Below, piece after piece: positions 5,822 through 12,617 of a stretch of 12,617 nucleotides of DNA (its first letter is position 1; every line of letters starts with the position of its first letter). The stretch lies in IMG/VR virus record IMGVR_UViG_646862323_000004; one strand, 5' to 3'. Made by a program: the position numbers and the translations under genes. A model generated the notes under the pieces. That model did no database searches. It was not told the origin of the DNA and was given only the letters and a program-made list of their open reading frames with translations. The DNA comes from a virus (taxonomy: Duplodnaviria > Heunggongvirae > Uroviricota > Caudoviricetes).

Positions 5822-5956
5822 TCACATCTTGTTGTTGCGGATAGAGGCTTCTGCTTGCCAGAGATCCCAGTCGTTGCTACGTAAAGCCTGCACAGCCGGG
5901 CTGTAAGTGATACCGCAACAATCCATCAAATACTGAACTACTTCGTAATGCACCAT
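5822..5956 (-). CDS. ydaG: YdaG-like small protein, 44 aa
   Basis: Hand-translated ORF absent from the track: [52 protein letters not shown] ribosome-binding site lies 7 nt upstream of the ATG at 5956-5954. Confidence 0.72.
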
Positions 5957-5978
5957 CTTATCTCTCCCCTTAACGCCG

Positions 5979-6167
5979 GGTGTCGCCTATGGCACCTCCG
6001 CAGGCAGTGCTGGCTACTGGTTTTTACAGTTGCTCGATAGAGTCACGCCCTCACAGTGGGCAGCAATAGGTGTGCTGGGTAGTCTGGTGTTTGGCCTGTT
6101 GACGTATCTGACAAATCTTTATTTCAAGATTAAAGAAGATAAGCGTAAGGCTGCACGGGGAGAGTAA
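5979..6167 (+). pseudogene. 5'-truncated class II pinholin (phage 21 S21 / EssD-like); first 9 or so codons and the start codon missing
   Basis: The in-frame translation [62 protein letters not shown]-stop matches S21 residues 10-71 as I recall them. There is no ATG, GTG or TTG start in frame after the upstream stop at 5946. Confidence 0.75.
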
Positions 6168-6171
6168 TTCA

Positions 6172-6516
6172 ATGACTCAAAACTATGAACTGATTGTGAA
6201 AGGGATCCGCAATTTTGAGAATAAAGTTACGGTAACTTTAGCGTTACGGGACAAAAAACGCTTTGACGGTGAAATTTTAGACCTGGACATCTCGCTGGAC
6301 CGTGTTGAAGGTGCCGCGCTGGAGTTTTATGAGGCAGCAGCCAGAAGGAGCATCAGACAGGTCTTCCTGGATGTTGCTGCAGGGTTATGTGAAGGGGATG
6401 AGCAGTCACCGGAAAAGCGCCCCATAATTTTAGAGGCGCAGGGTGTGTGGATAACCTACAAAGGAAAACTGCCGGGAAGAATTACTGGTTCACTGAAGAC
6501 TCCGCCGAAATGGTAA
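6172..6516 (+). CDS. DUF1327-family protein (Qin YdfR-like), 114 aa, in the lysis cassette
   Basis: ATG at 6172 lies 5 nt after the pinholin stop. The translation (MTQNYELIVKGIRNFENKVTVTLALRDKKRFDGE...) resembles the YdfR family found between holin and endolysin genes in Qin-type prophages. Confidence 0.78.
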   Translation: MTQNYELIVKGIRNFENKVTVTLALRDKKRFDGEILDLDISLDRVEGAALEFYEAAARRSIRQVFLDVAAGLCEGDEQSPEKRPIILEAQGVWITYKGKLPGRITGSLKTPPKW

Positions 6517-6754
6517 TTTCACCAGCATATTTTTCTTCCAGTAATACCGCCAGCCACTTGAAAGAATTTTGTTGTTGCTGGGACCATTTGGGGTTGAGTG
6601 ATTCAAGCTGGAGCGATGCCAGTGTTGGTTGCATTTGTTCCTTGGGAATTGAGAATGCCAGATATGAAAATGCGACAGTAAGGGCATTTACATCATCCCG
6701 AAGCTTGGAAATGCAGTCGAGCAACTCCTGTAGAGAAATGGTGCTATTGTCCAT
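6482..6754 (-). CDS. Hypothetical 90-aa protein of predicted helical character, convergent with and overlapping the DUF1327 gene
   Basis: ATG at 6754-6752 is preceded by GAGAGGA at about 7-nt spacing. Codon usage is coding-like, whereas the competing plus-strand ORF 6447-6779 translates to Ser/Cys-rich junk. I recognise no family. Confidence 0.45.
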   Translation of the reverse strand: MDNSTISLQELLDCISKLRDDVNALTVAFSYLAFSIPKEQMQPTLASLQLESLNPKWSQQQQNSFKWLAVLLEEKYAGEITISAESSVNQ

Positions 6755-6859
6755 AAACAATCCTCTCTATTGTATTTAACTATTCCTTGCCTGATTCAAC
6801 AGGCCGGGACAGATAAACATATCCAGGGTTCAGAAACCGATAAATCCTGATAAATATCC

Positions 6860-7393
6860 ATGAACGCAAAAATCAGATACGGCCTGTCGGCTGCCGTTCT
6901 GGCACTGATTGCCGTCGGTGCGCCTGCGCCTGATATTCTCGACCAGTTTCTGGATGAAAAAGAAGGTAACCACACAACGGCATACCGCGATGGTTCCGGT
7001 ATATGGACCATCTGTCGTGGTGCCACAATGGTGGATGGTAAGCCCGTCATACCGGGAATGAGGCTGTCGAAGGAAAAATGCGACCAGGTTAACGCTATTG
7101 AACGTGATAAGGCGCTGGCATGGGTGGAGCGCAATATTAAAGTACCACTGACCGAACCACAGAAAGCGGGTATAGCGTCATTTTGTCCCTATAACATTGG
7201 CCCCGGTAAGTGTTTCCCGTCGACGTTTTATAAGCGGCTGAATGCCGGTGATCGTAAGGGTGCATGCGAGGCGATTCGCTGGTGGATAAAAGATGGTGGG
7301 CGCGATTGCCGCATACGTTCAAATAACTGCTATGGACAGGTTATTCGTCGTGACCAGGAAAGCGCATTAGCCTGTTGGGGGATAGATCAGTGA
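6860..7393 (+). CDS. SAR endolysin (phage lysozyme, T4-lysozyme/GH24 type; R21/RrrD-like), 177 aa
   Basis: N-terminal Gly/Ala-rich signal-anchor-release segment ([17 protein letters not shown]) followed by the E...D...T catalytic motif ([18 protein letters not shown]). No Shine-Dalgarno is visible upstream of the ATG. Confidence 0.9.
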
Positions 7394-7854
7394 GCAGAGT
7401 CGCCGCGATTATTTATGCTCTGGTTATCTGCATCATCGTCTGCCTGTCATGGGCTGTTAATCATTACCGTGATAACGCCACCGCCTACAAAGAGCAGCGC
7501 GACAAAAATGCCAGAGAACTGAAGCTGGCGAACGCGGCAATTACTGACATGCAGATGCGTCAGCGTGATGTTGCTGCGCTCGATGCAAAATACACGAAGG
7601 AGTTAGCTGATGCGAAAGCTGAAAATGATGCTCTGCGTGATGATGTTGCCGCTGGTCGTCGTCGGTTGCACATCAAAGCAGTCTGTCAGTCAGTGCGTGA
7701 AGCCACCACCGCCTCCGGCGTGGATAATGCAGCCTCCCCCCGACTGGCAGACACCGCTGAACGGGATTATTTCACCCTCCGGGAACGACTGGTAATGATG
7801 CAGGCCCAACTTGAAGGTGCTCAGCAATACATAACCGAACAGTGTTTAAAGTAA
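7390..7854 (+). CDS. rzpR: Rz-type i-spanin, 154 aa from a GTG start overlapping the endolysin stop (GTGA)
   Basis: N-terminal transmembrane helix ([19 protein letters not shown]) followed by a charged coiled-coil region. The track ORF starts 5 codons upstream at a TTG. Confidence 0.85.
7610..7795 (+). CDS. rzoR: Rz1-type o-spanin lipoprotein, 61 aa, nested in the +1 frame of Rz
   Basis: AAGGAG ribosome-binding site before the ATG. Signal peptide with lipobox (LVVVGC) and a proline-rich mature region ([15 protein letters not shown]), entirely embedded within the Rz gene. Confidence 0.88.
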
Positions 7855-7991
7855 AATCTTAACTACAATATGATTCATTTTGATGATTGTTTCATAAGGA
7901 ACAGTGAAGTAAGATCTAAGAGGAGTTAAATTTTATACAGTATAATCATAATATTGCAGCAAGGTGGTTATAATTGAAAGAATATTTAGAT

Positions 7992-9450
7992 ATGAATACA
8001 TCTCATGTAAGAGTTGTTACTCATATGTGTGGGTTCCTGGTTTGGCTCTATAGTCTTTCAATGTTGCCACCAATGGTTGTAGCATTGTTTTATAAAGAAA
8101 AAAGCCTATTCGTTTTCTTTATAACTTTCGTTATATTTTTTTGTCATTGGTGGCGGAGCGTGGTATACAACTAAGAAATCTGGCATTCAATTACGTACCC
8201 GTGATGGGTTTATTATAATTGTAATGTTTTGGATTTTGTTTTCTGTTATTAGTGCATTCCCTTTATGGATTGACTCAGAACTTAATTTAACGTTCATTGA
8301 TGCTCTGTTTGAAGGGGTTTCTGGAATAACAACAACAGGAGCAACTGTAATTGATGATGTTAGTTCATTACCTCGGGCATATTTGTACTATCGGTCACAG
8401 TTAAATTTTATAGGTGGTTTAGGAGTTATTGTTCTGGCGGTTGCTGTATTGCCATTATTGGGTATTGGTGGTGCAAAGCTTTATCAGTCAGAAATGCCGG
8501 GGCCATTTAAGGATGACAAACTCACTCCCCGCCTGGCCGATACGTCACGGACACTGTGGATAACTTATTCTTTATTAGGTATTGCTTGTATTGTCTGTTA
8601 TAGACTTGCAGGAATGCCTTTGTTTGATGCTATTTGTCACGGGATTTCCACAGTTTCGCTTGGTGGTTTCTCAACTCATAGCGAGAGTATCGGATATTTT
8701 AATAACTATTTGGTTGAGCTGGTGGCTGGTTCTTTTTCCCTGCTATCGGCTTTCAACTTCACTCTTTGGTATATTGTTATTAGCAGGAAAACGATAAAAC
8801 CTTTAATCAGAGATATTGAACTTCGTTTCTTTCTGTTAATAGCCTTAGGGGTGATCATTGTTACCTCTTTCCAGGTCTGGCATATAGGTATGTATGACTT
8901 GCATGGAAGTTTTATTCATTCGTTTTTTCTTGCCAGCTCCATGCTCACTGATAATGGTTTAGCTACGCAGGATTATGCAAGCTGGCCCACGCACACGATA
9001 GTGTTTTTGCTGTCGTCAAGTTTCTTTGGGGGATGTATAGGTTCAACTTGTGGTGGAATTAAGTCACTTCGATTTCTTATACTTTTCAAACAAAGCAAAC
9101 ACGAGATAAATCAGCTTTCTCATCCCAGAGCGTTGTTGAGTGTAAATGTAGGAGGGAAGATAGTTACAGATCGTGTAATGAGGTCTGTATGGAGTTTCTT
9201 TTTTCTTTATACTCTCTTCACGGTGTTTTTTATACTGGTGTTAAATGGTATGGGATATGATTTTCTTACATCATTTGCAACAGTGGCTGCATGTATTAAT
9301 AATATGGGATTAGGTTTTGGGGCTACTGCATCGTCATTCGGAGTGCTTAATGACATTGCAAAATATTTAATGTGCATAGCTATGATTCTTGGTCGCCTTG
9401 AAATTTATCCTGTTATTATATTGTTTTCAGGTTTTTTTTGGCGCTCCTAA
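7992..9450 (+). pseudogene. trkG: TrkG potassium-uptake protein gene disrupted by a +1 frameshift (extra C near 8145)
   Basis: Frame 3 reads MNTSHVRVV...FVIFFC then HWWRSVVYN-stop (8172-8174). Frame 1 from 8146 reads IGGGAWYTTKKSGIQLRTRDGFIIIVMFW and continues to 9450. The span is 1459 nt, one more than 486 codons. The region is strongly AT-rich. Confidence 0.85.
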
Positions 9451-9532
9451 TATATGGCTGATTTATAATTGTGAGTTTAATATTATATTGACTCACTCAT
9501 TGATCCAATACCTAACTTTACCAGCAACACCT

Positions 9533-9570
9533 CCGCCCCCAGTAGCACTGGCTGCTGGGGTGCGTTTTAT
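9533..9570 (+). terminator. Candidate intrinsic terminator downstream of trkG
   Basis: Imperfect GC-rich stem (CGCCCCCAG ... CTGGGGTGCG) at about 9533-9564, followed by TTTTATTC. Read from the sequence; not energy-scored. Confidence 0.3.
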
Positions 9571-9587
9571 TCATAAAGCAAGGCTGT

Positions 9588-9983
9588 ATGAGCGAGAAAT
9601 TAAAGATAGTCTATCGCCCATTACAAGAATTGTCACCGTATGCGCACAACGCCAGGACGCACAGTACTGAGCAGGTGGCACAACTGGTAGAAAGTATTAA
9701 GCAATTCGGCTGGACTAATCCGGTGCTGATTGACGAAAAGGGCGAAATTATTGCGGGTCACGGTCGTGTTATGGCGGCTGAAATGCTCAAAATGGATTCT
9801 GTTCCGGTCATTGTTCTGGCCGGAGATACAACCTACAGGGAATGGTTTTTGCGTCAGCCTTACACCAGACAAAAACAGATTGTGGGGGAAACCCGGGCAA
9901 AGCTGATTCGGGATGGCGGTATGTCGCCAGATGAATTTTACACCGATAAAGGCGAATACCCGGATCGCAACAGTAAGCGGTAA
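9588..9983 (+). CDS. ynaK: YnaK-like ParB/Srx-type N-terminal domain ORF, 131 aa, with an aberrant C-terminal extension
   Basis: The first 80 or so residues (…IIAGHGRVMAAEMLKMDSVPVIVLAG) look like a ParB N-terminal nuclease-like fold. The remainder (DTTYREWFLRQPYTRQ...) has no ParB character and overlaps the next ORF. Confidence 0.68.
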   Translation: MSEKLKIVYRPLQELSPYAHNARTHSTEQVAQLVESIKQFGWTNPVLIDEKGEIIAGHGRVMAAEMLKMDSVPVIVLAGDTTYREWFLRQPYTRQKQIVGETRAKLIRDGGMSPDEFYTDKGEYPDRNSKR

Positions 9984-10668
9984 TACATCCCTTATAACAG
10001 CCAAAGCTGAACAACAGGGCGAGTGGACCTACTATGAGGCCACTTATACAGCTAATACGGACATTGATACCGTTAACTGTGCTTTTTATATGACAAATAA
10101 AATAAGTAATGAGCCATTCTATGATGACTCAACATTAACCATGACGACGCCGCAAATTGAACTGGGCAATACGGCATCGTCATTTATTGTAACTACAATG
10201 CCAACAACACGCGCAAGTGATGTGGTTACTATCCCCTCGGCGAATAACCTGTCAACACGGCCTTTTACAGTATTGTGCGAAGTAAGGAGGAACTGGAGTA
10301 CACCGCCCAATGTTGCGCCAAGGATATTTGATGTTGGAGGGCACAGTATTGATGATAATTATTTATCGCTGGGGTTTGTTTCAACAGGAAAGATAAGCGC
10401 CAACGTAGGAATGGTTCAGCCACAAATTTCCTCAGATGGAGAAAGGTTCATTGTGGGTGTGAGAGCTAAATCTGATTTATCAGTAAATGCAATATGCAAT
10501 GGTAATTATACAACAAACCTTAATGGTAAAATATTTGGAGTTACAGCAACATCGTACCGGTTTGGTGGGCAGACCGCAGCAGGAACGCGTCATTTGTTTG
10601 GACACATCAGAAATTTCAGAGTCTGGTTTAAAGAATTAAATGACAGGCAAATCAAGGAGGCAGTATGA
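9913..10668 (+). CDS. Tail-fibre-like protein fragment, 251 aa, with a C-terminal concanavalin-A/LamG-like jelly-roll domain; probably 5'-truncated
   Basis: Thr/Ser/Asn-rich beta-type composition. The C-terminus (...RFGGQTAAGTRHLFGHIRNFRVWFKELNDRQIKEAV) resembles the end of LamG-type domains. No Shine-Dalgarno precedes any in-frame Met; an in-frame stop lies at 9904-9906. Confidence 0.5.
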   Translation: MAVCRQMNFTPIKANTRIATVSGNTSLITAKAEQQGEWTYYEATYTANTDIDTVNCAFYMTNKISNEPFYDDSTLTMTTPQIELGNTASSFIVTTMPTTRASDVVTIPSANNLSTRPFTVLCEVRRNWSTPPNVAPRIFDVGGHSIDDNYLSLGFVSTGKISANVGMVQPQISSDGERFIVGVRAKSDLSVNAICNGNYTTNLNGKIFGVTATSYRFGGQTAAGTRHLFGHIRNFRVWFKELNDRQIKEAV

Positions 10669-10943
10669 AAGATTTAACTTTGAAATTTCCTGGTAACAGA
10701 GAGTTTAAATCCTTCCTGTCATCTCTTGACTGGGAGGAAGATGAAGACCTCCAGAATAAACTGTTAGTCGATGAAATTGGTTTCACCTACACAGAAACAG
10801 GGGTAACTGAAGAGGGAGAACCTGTCTGTATCCGGAATAACGGTTATTTTGTCAACATTCGCATTCTTGATGACTTGTTTGATGTTTCTGTATTCTCTGA
10901 TTATGTCGTGGAGCTGGAAACACCGCTTCGGGAATGGAGCTGA
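10665..10943 (+). CDS. Hypothetical acidic protein, 92 aa
   Basis: Consensus AAGGAGG lies 5 nt upstream of the ATG, which overlaps the preceding stop (ATGA). Asp/Glu-rich with no hydrophobic segment. I recognise no family. Confidence 0.6.
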   Translation: MKDLTLKFPGNREFKSFLSSLDWEEDEDLQNKLLVDEIGFTYTETGVTEEGEPVCIRNNGYFVNIRILDDLFDVSVFSDYVVELETPLREWS

Positions 10944-10955
10944 AAGGAGGAAATA

Positions 10956-11249
10956 ATGGATATAAGCCCCTTACTTCATGCACTTTGTGCTGTGGCTGCG
11001 CAGATACTGGTTGGTCTTTTTACCGGAAACTGGGCTTACGGAGCGATAGCCGGTTGTACGTTCTTCATTGCGCGTGAACATACCCAGGCAGAATATCGCT
11101 GGATTGAAATGTTCGGGCATGGCAAGCGAATGAATATGCCGTGGTGGGGCGGTTTTGATCCGCGCGCGTGGGATGTGGCAAGCCTGATGGATTTTGCTGT
11201 GCCGGTGGTGGCGTGTCTGCTGGTCTGGCTGTTGGTTAATCGTGGGTGA
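10956..11249 (+). CDS. Hypothetical small integral membrane protein, 97 aa, about three hydrophobic segments
   Basis: Consensus AAGGAGG lies 4 nt upstream of the ATG. Hydrophobic stretches [32 protein letters not shown] and [19 protein letters not shown] recognise no family. Confidence 0.62.
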
Positions 11250-11259
11250 AAAAAGGTGG

Positions 11260-11379
11260 GCTGTATATGCAACGGAGGAAGAAACCTCGTTGCTGGAAGC
11301 ATGGAAAAAGTATCGGGTATTGCTGAACCGTGTTGATACGTCAACTGCACAGGATATTGAATGGCCAGCACTGCCGTAG
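11260..11379 (+). pseudogene. tfaR: 3' remnant of a tail fibre assembly gene (tfa); conserved C-terminal 35 or so codons only
   Basis: Translation ...[36 protein letters not shown]-stop matches the lambda Tfa C-terminus as I recall it. There is no in-frame ATG; the upstream sequence in this frame overlaps the membrane-protein gene. Confidence 0.7.
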
Positions 11380-11476
11380 GGTAAAACATATAAATTCTAT
11401 AATTAGATGTATCTTTCCATTTACGGCAAGGAAGGGGGCTTGGAAGACGTAAAGCATCTCACACCGAGATTATTTT

Positions 11477-12067
11477 TTATATGTCAGGTGTCTGAAGTTT
11501 TGCTTTGGCTCTTAAAATGGTTTGCCGCGAGGTTTTGAATTCCCGGGCAATGGCACTTATACTTACACCTGACTTAATTCGTTCGAATACCACCTGTTTC
11601 TGTTCTTCATTTAACACAGGTGGTCGACCAAAACGTTTCCCTGCGCCGCGGGCTCTTACTATCCCGGAATGAGTGCGTTCAAGTAAAAGGTCTCGTTCAA
11701 ATTCAGCGACTGCTGAAATTACTTGCATCATCATTTTTCCTGTTGGACTGGTCAGGTCAATGCCCCCCAATGCTAAGCAATGCACTCTGATACCTGTTTC
11801 GGTCAGTTGTTCCACTGTTTTCCTGATATCCATTGCATTACAACCAAGGCGATCCAATTTTGTCACAATCAATTGATCACCACATTTCAGGCGAGCAAGC
11901 AACCGGTTAAAACCAGGACGCTCACTGGTTGCTGCTGAGCCACTAATGTGTTCTTCGATTATTTGCTGAGGTTTGATTTTAAAACCTGCACTTTCGATTT
12001 CCCGGCGTTGATTTTCGGTGGTCTGATCCAGCGTTGATATCCGACAGTAAGCAAAAATTTGAGACAT
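11477..12067 (-). CDS. pinR: Serine recombinase, Pin/Gin/Hin-family DNA invertase, 196 aa
   Basis: N-terminal catalytic motif ([11 protein letters not shown]), resolvase fold and C-terminal helix-turn-helix ([20 protein letters not shown]). Sequence and length match my recollection of PinR. Confidence 0.93.
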
Positions 12068-12383
12068 AGTGAGACTCTATACGAAATTGGTGTTCATATC
12101 ATAATGCATCTCAGAAAATAATTATGATTATTTTTGTGCATATTTGTATGTACACGTTCGAAAATAAACGAATGCGTATGCAACCCCGTAATTTTGGTGA
12201 GACCCAAAATCGATTTTGTGAAAAATGGCTTTAACTCGGTTTGTTTTTCGAGTTCCGGGCGGACTCAAGGAAGAAGAATAGTGTTGCGTGTTATTTTAAC
12301 CAGATTTCAAGTTGTTTGGTCGTGGAAAAGTGGAGCAAAATGTTGTTAAAGTGGAAAAATGATAAAAAAGTAAGTTTATTATA

Positions 12384-12617
12384 TTACATTTTACCATTTA
12401 AATTTTGGTTGTCTTTAAGAACTGATATCGCTGTTTGTAATAATTCTTTGTTATCCAGCCATGATTTTTTCTTTATGTTTCCTTCAATGTAATCAAGCAA
12501 TGTTCTGGTATTGATAGGTCTTCCCTGTTTTGCTACTTCCACTACAGCATCCCCTAGGATAATTCTTACTTCAGGAAGCTGCGCAGGGAACCACTTTAGG
12601 GTGTCTTTTGATTTCAT
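12384..12617 (-). CDS. ynaE: YnaE/YdfK-family small protein, 77 aa
   Basis: Complete ORF with ATG at 12617-12615, the last three bases of the window. Translation MKSKDTLKWFPAQLPEVRIILGDAVVEVAKQGRPINTRTLLDY... matches my recollection of YnaE. Confidence 0.85.
   Translation of the reverse strand: MKSKDTLKWFPAQLPEVRIILGDAVVEVAKQGRPINTRTLLDYIEGNIKKKSWLDNKELLQTAISVLKDNQNLNGKM

Follow-up and report, generated by a model that had tools for sequence, protein, structure and literature searches.

A probable double deletion scar in the Rac prophage of the Escherichia coli BL21 lineage carries the remnant of a side-tail-fibre gene

The region described here is in all probability (about 0.94) a double deletion scar in a Rac prophage, in which a 251-codon open reading frame (ORF) represents a non-functional fragment of a side-tail-fibre gene left by prophage decay. 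The window analysed, that is, the whole stretch of DNA of 12,617 nt, is the defective Rac prophage of the Escherichia coli B/BL21 lineage. Its positions 9400-11400 are 100% identical to the corresponding part of the genome of E. coli BLR(DE3), for which the PGAP annotation gives the following gene order: trkG, an ynaK pseudogene lacking its C-terminus, a 245-aa 'hypothetical protein', two hypothetical proteins of 92 and 97 aa, a tail-fibre-assembly pseudogene fragment and pinR. The parent of the fragment is a known fibre gene, already sequenced and annotated, and the event is of a textbook type in prophage decay; it is not a new gene. The features of the region are listed in Table 1.

Table 1. 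Features of the scar region and of the genes that follow it (positions in the window).
Feature	Position	Strand	Description
ynaK stump	9588-9818	+	Codons 1-77 of the ParB/Srx N-terminal domain gene of Rac
Chimeric ORF	9588-9983	+	131 codons: 77 of ParB_N, ~46 of the minor head gene, 8 out-of-frame fibre codons, then a stop
Left scar	9817-9818	+	TG microhomology; ynaK-head seam
Minor head fragment	9817-9957	+	141 bp, codons ~304-350 of 370 of a Mu-F-like phage minor head protein, in frame with ynaK
TGA in the fibre frame	9904-9906	+	Three codons before the first ATG, inside the out-of-frame head-gene fragment; closes the frame upstream
251-codon ORF	9913-10668	+	ATG start; from the open-reading-frame listing
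Right scar	9956-9957	+	AT microhomology; head-fibre seam
Side-tail-fibre 3' remnant	9956-10668	+	Codons 439-674 and stop (last 236 codons of 674)
CBM-like beta-sandwich, C-terminal half	9958-10215	+	Related to the Rhodobacter gene transfer agent head-spike fibre; cut by the putative deletion
ConA/LamG-like jelly-roll domain	10216-10665	+	Complete, C-terminal; presumed glycan-binding tip of the fibre
orf92	10665-10943	+	Start overlaps the fibre stop (ATGA, 10665-10668); perfect AGGAGG; phrog_1361, E = 4e-39
orf97	10956-11249	+	97-aa small hydrophobic (membrane) protein; perfect AGGAGG; phrog_1443, E = 2.4e-58
tfa 3' fragment	11269-11379	+	111 bp, PGAP pseudogene; seam of the fibre module to the Rac backbone (pinR side)

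The junction was mapped by pairwise blastn against related loci and by hand-checked alignments, the loci including an intact Rac-like prophage of strain HCM-21C-2 (L004) and a K-12-type locus (L003). Three segments were obtained, with a 2-nt overlap at each seam: ynaK up to position 9818, a minor head gene from 9817 to 9957, and the fibre gene from 9956. Up to 9818, the window shares 99.0-99.3% identity with ynaK of the K-12-type locus and of the intact prophage; beyond this position these two loci, unlike the window, continue as ...ATTGTTCTG TCTGGCCTGACGGATGAGCAG. The ynaK stump matches the ParB_N family (PF02195) with 29.3 bits against a cut-off of 26.3 (residues 23-77, profile positions 20-78 of 95), and this match stops at profile position 78, exactly at the seam. 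It had been predicted from the letters alone that the likeness to ParB ends at about 9825, after ...VPVIVLAG; the similarity does end there, but its precise limit is 9818, after ...VPVIVL.

The segment that follows is identical at 141 of 141 positions to positions 31778-31638 of the intact prophage, inside a gene annotated as 'phage minor head protein'. Its translation (AGDTTYREWF...DKGE) agrees with that protein, and residues 78-123 of the ynaK frame (AGDTTYREWFLRQPYTRQKQIVGETRAKLIRDGGMSPDEFYTDKGE) correspond to minor head residues ~304-350. The parent minor head protein (370 aa) matches PF04233 and phrog_241, its Mu F domain lying at residues 153-273; this domain (PF04233; phrog_241) is absent from the window, where codons ~304-350 alone were kept and are recognisable by nucleotide identity. 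A distant-mode search with positions 9790-9990 showed that many E. coli prophages have the head piece in their minor head gene, with 97-100% identity among the matches listed.

Alignment to Rac-like prophages thus places a breakpoint at 9818, but the sequence between 9819 and 9955 is neither ynaK nor fibre. The original prediction, a deletion joining ynaK to the distal part of a side-tail-fibre (Stf) gene, holds in that a distal part of such a gene was left behind; it fails in that a 141-bp head piece lies in between and two scars are present, so that a direct ynaK-fibre junction is ruled out by the blastn segments. The deletion that truncated the fibre gene thus joined it to the head-gene piece and not to ynaK. 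The tail of the ynaK frame that does not resemble ParB is not noise either; it consists of an in-frame piece of the head gene and, after it, eight out-of-frame fibre codons.

The complete fibre gene is found in REL606 (L006) and AS19 (L005), with the order trkG, ynaK stump, head-gene piece, a DUF6651 gene, a gene for a 674-aa fibre, orf92, orf97 and a tfa fragment. This 674-aa parent (WP_024182056.1; ECB_RS07130 in REL606) is annotated as a 'prophage tail fiber N-terminal domain-containing protein'. The remnant protein is identical to its residues 439-674, so that comparison with intact Stf proteins yields a C-terminal region only, as anticipated, and no mismatch separates the 1,458 nt at positions 9956-11413 of the window from REL606 (L006 from 7211). 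A stretch of 2,542 bp present in AS19 and REL606 (L005 4169-6710) is missing from the window. In the latter two strains, the ynaK stump runs without a change of frame into the final 67 codons of the minor head gene and on to the natural stop of that gene (REL606, L006 4299-4730; AS19, L005 3799-4230). This ynaK-head chimera of 143 aa is named 'chromosome partitioning protein ParB' in some annotations.

Two successive deletions most probably explain the arrangement of the window. In the first and older one, an illegitimate deletion would have brought codon 77 of ynaK next to codon ~304 of the minor head gene, with the reading frame preserved; these two points lie ~6.4 kb apart in the intact Rac-like prophage. 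In the second one, restricted to the BL21 lineage, a deletion of 2,542 bp between two 'AT' dinucleotides would have removed the remainder of the head gene, the DUF6651 gene and, from the 674-codon side-tail-fibre gene, codons 1-438. No repeat longer than the 2-nt microhomology was detected at the deletion end points, which led to the rejection of homologous recombination between repeats as the cause and points to illegitimate end-joining or replication slippage.

The change could also be read in the opposite direction, the BL21 arrangement being ancestral and REL606, B and other strains having acquired the 2.5 kb through an insertion or a recombination event. Apart from the fact that an indel is formally symmetrical, nothing speaks for such a gain, and it can practically be dismissed: the longer form has whole genes, for DUF6651 and for a 674-aa fibre that includes the N-terminal domain, follows the gene order of viable phages and is present in unrelated natural isolates, whereas the shorter form starts in the middle of a domain. 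On these grounds, a deletion in BL21 is to be preferred to an insertion in REL606, a direction of change that is read from gene completeness and natural isolates, not from dated ancestors.

The distribution of the two seams among strains was determined with positions 9790-9990 as a query against 5,426 complete E. coli genomes. The full query was found with 100% identity in 32 of these genomes, all of them BL21 or derivatives, including BL21(DE3), BLR, C41, C43, BL21-AI, Rosetta2, T7 Express/NEB Express, BAP1, B95.deltaA and others. In another 32 of the 5,426 genomes, the match extends to the second seam only, which corresponds to the ynaK|head seam without truncation of the fibre gene. Among the matches listed for this second group (28 of 32) are REL606, B, ATCC 11303, AS19 and drug-selected B derivatives, as well as natural isolates from humans, poultry, cow's milk and seawater. 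Since the ynaK|head seam occurs in natural isolates, the first scar appears to be old and natural, while the second scar arose in the laboratory lineage leading to BL21. A gene with the N-terminus of the 251-codon ORF was not found outside the BL21 lineage in the 5,426 complete genomes; an intact homologue of the same length with this N-terminus, which according to the original prediction would have spoken against a deletion, was thus not encountered in other lineages. With the seam at 9956/9957 as a clean marker, a single locus suffices to tell BL21-lineage strains apart from REL606, B and ATCC 11303.

With regard to translation, the 251-codon ORF opens with 14-15 codons (MAVCRQMNFTPIKAN) of minor-head-gene sequence read out of frame. 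PGAP places the start at the next ATG, at 9931, and annotates the resulting 245-aa 'hypothetical protein' (WP_012775983.1) as an ordinary CDS and not as a pseudogene. Several features noted beforehand were recovered here: (i) the stop just upstream is a TGA in the same frame as the ORF, (ii) no ribosome-binding site was recognised, a match of at least four nucleotides to AGGAGG at a distance of 4-12 nt being absent before all in-frame ATG, GTG and TTG codons of the first 500 nt, including those at 9913 and 9931, (iii) the overlap with the ynaK frame, given as 70 nt, measures 71 nt, the two being read in different frames, and (iv) the fibre stop is coupled to the downstream genes, through the ATGA for the first of them and a start 12 nt past the previous stop for the second. 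A perfect AGGAGG is located 4-5 nt before each of these two downstream genes (orf92 and orf97). A scan of positions 9400-11500 for promoters and terminators was uninformative, with counts no higher than in shuffled sequence. Most likely, the remnant is translated to no useful extent. A missing Shine-Dalgarno sequence is not a strict barrier, however, and low-level translation from the ATG at 9913 or 9931 may take place.

The domain content of the remnant was compared with that of its parent. In the parent fibre, residues 3-132 form the 'prophage tail fibre N-terminal' domain (PF08400; E = 7.8e-67), and residues 195-674 match phrog_1419 ('tail protein'); the remnant matches positions 543-793 of the 793 positions of phrog_1419. 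PF08400 gave no match in the 251-aa ORF, and the window holds a fragment of an Stf-type member rather than a member. The remnant comprises half of a CBM-like beta-sandwich and a terminal ConA/LamG-like jelly roll. For the former, the profile NF048003 (GTA_spike_fiber) scores 29.6 bits with the window ORF, below the cut-off of 36 and over profile positions 105-181 of 182 only, against 68.3 bits over positions 1-181 with an untruncated 404-aa homologue. A homologue profile, from a search that gave 15 proteins, mostly fragments, finds Rcc01080 (PDB 6TB9) with E = 1e-4. In predicted structures, the beta-sandwich part reaches a pLDDT of 81-91 in its intact context versus 46-65 in the stump, whose N-terminal half-domain lacks six of about thirteen strands.

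For the C-terminal domain, Laminin_G_3 (PF13385) matches over profile positions 4-151 of 151 (24.9 bits against a gathering threshold of 27.6; E = 2.5e-5). The last ~150 residues are modelled as a two-sheet jelly-roll beta-sandwich with a lectin fold, also when taken alone, with a moderate confidence (mean pLDDT 60-64) from a shallow alignment of 15 sequences. The near-threshold match and the model agree with the LamG/ConA-like C-terminus that had been read from the sequence, and the jelly-roll fold on which that reading depended is indeed the one predicted. The description of the remnant as an orphaned receptor-binding domain is right for the LamG-like domain, which is whole, but incomplete, since half of a beta-sandwich, cut at about position 105 of 182, is retained as well. 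In an intact phage, the jelly roll would most likely bind a surface glycan, as suggested by its lectin fold and its position at the fibre tip. The remnant has neither the anchoring N-terminal domain nor a start codon nor a ribosome-binding site, and the prophage is without head and tail genes, so that it cannot act as a fibre.

A different view would be that the 251-codon ORF is a genuine free-standing gene, started at ATG 9913 or 9931 and encoding a soluble lectin-like protein of ~245 aa, perhaps aided by the orf92 product, with some role in BL21 such as the binding of an envelope glycan. It is an annotated CDS (PGAP), its LamG-like domain is complete and still adopts a jelly roll when modelled alone, and the downstream genes orf92 and orf97 are intact. 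This view is nevertheless very unlikely, including the role in BL21: the ORF opens with out-of-frame head-gene codons, it has no Shine-Dalgarno sequence, its N-terminal half-domain, reduced as described above, cannot fold natively, and the form is known from one laboratory lineage only, so that selection had no chance to shape it. As a long shot, very improbable indeed, a read-through transcript might allow weak translation of the stump in BL21, starting at ATG 9913 or 9931, and the resulting protein, folded with the help of the orf92 product, would be a free LamG-type lectin domain that binds a B-strain envelope glycan. If this were true, phage adsorption or envelope properties could be subtly altered in the most widely used protein-expression host.

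It is next to impossible that ynaK and the fibre remnant are read as a single protein, with a ParB_N domain bearing a receptor-binding domain. One public contig of 2,286 bp does encode an in-frame ynaK-head-fibre chimera of 359 aa (P0001; …MSPDEFYTIKANTRIATV…); relative to the window it has lost 1 nt near 9946, in ACC GAT AAA, and it may be a real variant of a BL21 derivative or a sequencing error. In the window, by contrast, the ynaK frame is that of 9588 and ends with the stop at 9981-9983, whereas the fibre is in frame +1, closed by the TGA at 9904, and the sequence of 9790-9990 recurs with 100% identity in 32 of the 32 complete BL21-type genomes. On informal inspection, no sign of a programmed -1/+1 frameshift was noticed in 9907-9983. 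An in-frame fusion in the window is thus refuted by the reading frames, the sole chimera being that of the one short contig with its 1-nt deletion. The preferred reading, a fibre gene fragment in a double deletion scar, accounts for the ORF as a by-product of decay.

Downstream of the remnant, orf92 and orf97 are intact passengers with their own ribosome-binding sites. The orf92 product is an acidic protein of 92 aa, and phrog_1361 homologues occur in 144 phage records. In 40 rows sampled of these 144, the match usually abuts an annotated fibre gene, in lambdoid, T1-like, Dhillonvirus, Seuratvirus and T5-like phages, and the annotations under the match include a 'putative lateral tail fiber chaperone' in phage VogelGryff. 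From this co-occurrence, the orf92 product is probably a fibre-specific assembly partner or chaperone distinct from Tfa. The orf97 product is 100% identical in phage 21, where it is annotated as a 'putative membrane protein', in 1H12 and in many lambdoid phages, in which the gene sits behind fibre modules; Aeromonas and Halomonas phages gave weaker partial matches. The gene may encode a membrane 'moron' or serve in superinfection exclusion. Positions 11269-12617 match the intact Rac-like prophage L004.

Other parts of the window were also inspected. The trkG gene (7992-9450) contains an extra T at position 8144 (TTTTTTTGTCATT versus TTTTTTTGCATT in BLR(DE3) and REL606), which causes a frameshift after about codon 51 and splits the gene into two ORFs (7974-8174 and 8224-9450). 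This insertion was found in 0 of 5,426 complete E. coli genomes, the best matches (99.2%) showing one gap, and it is either a mutation private to the source strain or a sequence error. The antitoxin sRNA RalA of the RalR/RalA toxin-antitoxin pair of Rac is located at 1557-1735 (Rfam RF02694, 225 bits); it is the sole Rfam match in the window, and a non-coding RNA in the scar region was accordingly rejected. Upstream of trkG, at ~5955-7854 (L001 2557-4456), the B-lineage Rac prophage carries a lysis cassette composed of essD, a ydfR-family gene, an rrrQ-type lysozyme gene and a gene for an Rz-like lysis protein. At this position, the K-12-type locus L003 carries ydaS, ydaT, ydaU, ydaV and a DUF1627 pseudogene. 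The lysis cassette and the yda genes are a mosaic difference between the Rac prophages of B and K-12.

The practical value of these results lies mostly in annotation, and they raise neither a new mechanism nor an open biological question. The RefSeq entry found in every BL21-type genome is a 245-aa 'hypothetical protein' and should carry a flag as a pseudogene fragment (side tail fibre). REL606 and BL21(DE3) were reportedly compared by Studier et al. in 2009 (J Mol Biol 394:653). A description of the Rac scar was not found in the open-access full text searched.

Among known fibre systems, the closest is the REL606 fibre itself, which is followed by the same two genes with the same ATGA overlap. 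In lambdoid phage 1H12, the fibre gp23 (YP_009909514.1, 673 aa) is 98% identical over the 236 aa of the remnant, a level shared by the fibres of a group of lambdoid phages, and the gene order is gpJ, fibre, orf92 and orf97. Compared with the REL606 and 1H12 fibres, the window is without codons 1-438, i.e. the PF08400 domain, an Ala/Glu-rich shaft and half of the first distal beta-sandwich, as well as the start and the ribosome-binding site. The homologous gene follows gpJ in phage 1H12 and in strain HR5-1, whereas the upstream neighbours of the remnant in the window are trkG, the ynaK stump and the head scrap, not a gpJ tail module. The Stf-type arrangement of a distal receptor-binding region followed by a coupled accessory gene is present, with orf92 overlapping the fibre stop.

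The stfR/tfaR genes of the K-12 Rac prophage and the Stf/Tfa system of lambda occupy the same position as the parent fibre gene, between the J/lom region and pinR, and share the N-terminal PF08400 domain. However, the distal part of K-12 stfR and lambda Stf is unrelated, with a lambda/T4 gp37-like tip and a Tfa chaperone, whereas the parent fibre ends in a CBM-like sandwich and a LamG jelly roll, and the gene for the 92-aa partner comes next, tfa being reduced to the 111-bp remnant. The jelly-roll domain can further be compared with the ConA-like lectin/glucanase superfamily (laminin G/LNS, pentraxin, BoNT Hc-N and CBM40), with an identity of only 10-16%.

The head spike fibre Rcc01080 of the Rhodobacter capsulatus gene transfer agent (6TB9; NF048003) shows a sequence-level similarity in the penultimate beta-sandwich (E = 1e-4; 68 bits for the untruncated protein). 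This domain is carried on the capsid in Rhodobacter but in a tail fibre here, and the window keeps profile positions 105-181 only, below the cut-off. In strain HR5-1 (L002 7499-8713), a 404-aa protein (P0002), which equals residues 271-674 of the same side tail fibre, is named 'phage head spike fiber domain-containing protein' in RefSeq, a name derived from NF048003; the start assigned to P0002 is an internal Met that lies downstream of a broken stf N-terminal pseudogene. Such a product name is misleading, because the domain sits in a tail fibre and not on a capsid.

Finally, lateral or side tail fibres of T1-like, Dhillonvirus and T5-like coliphages contain a counterpart of the 236-aa region with 43-75% identity. 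The lateral fibres of T1-like, Dhillonvirus, Seuratvirus and T5-like phages (JenP2, KarlJaspers, VogelGryff) have in common the LamG-ended module and the overlapping gene for the 92-aa partner. They differ in their N-terminal attachment parts and virion types, and in these phages, unlike in the window, the genes are complete and functional.
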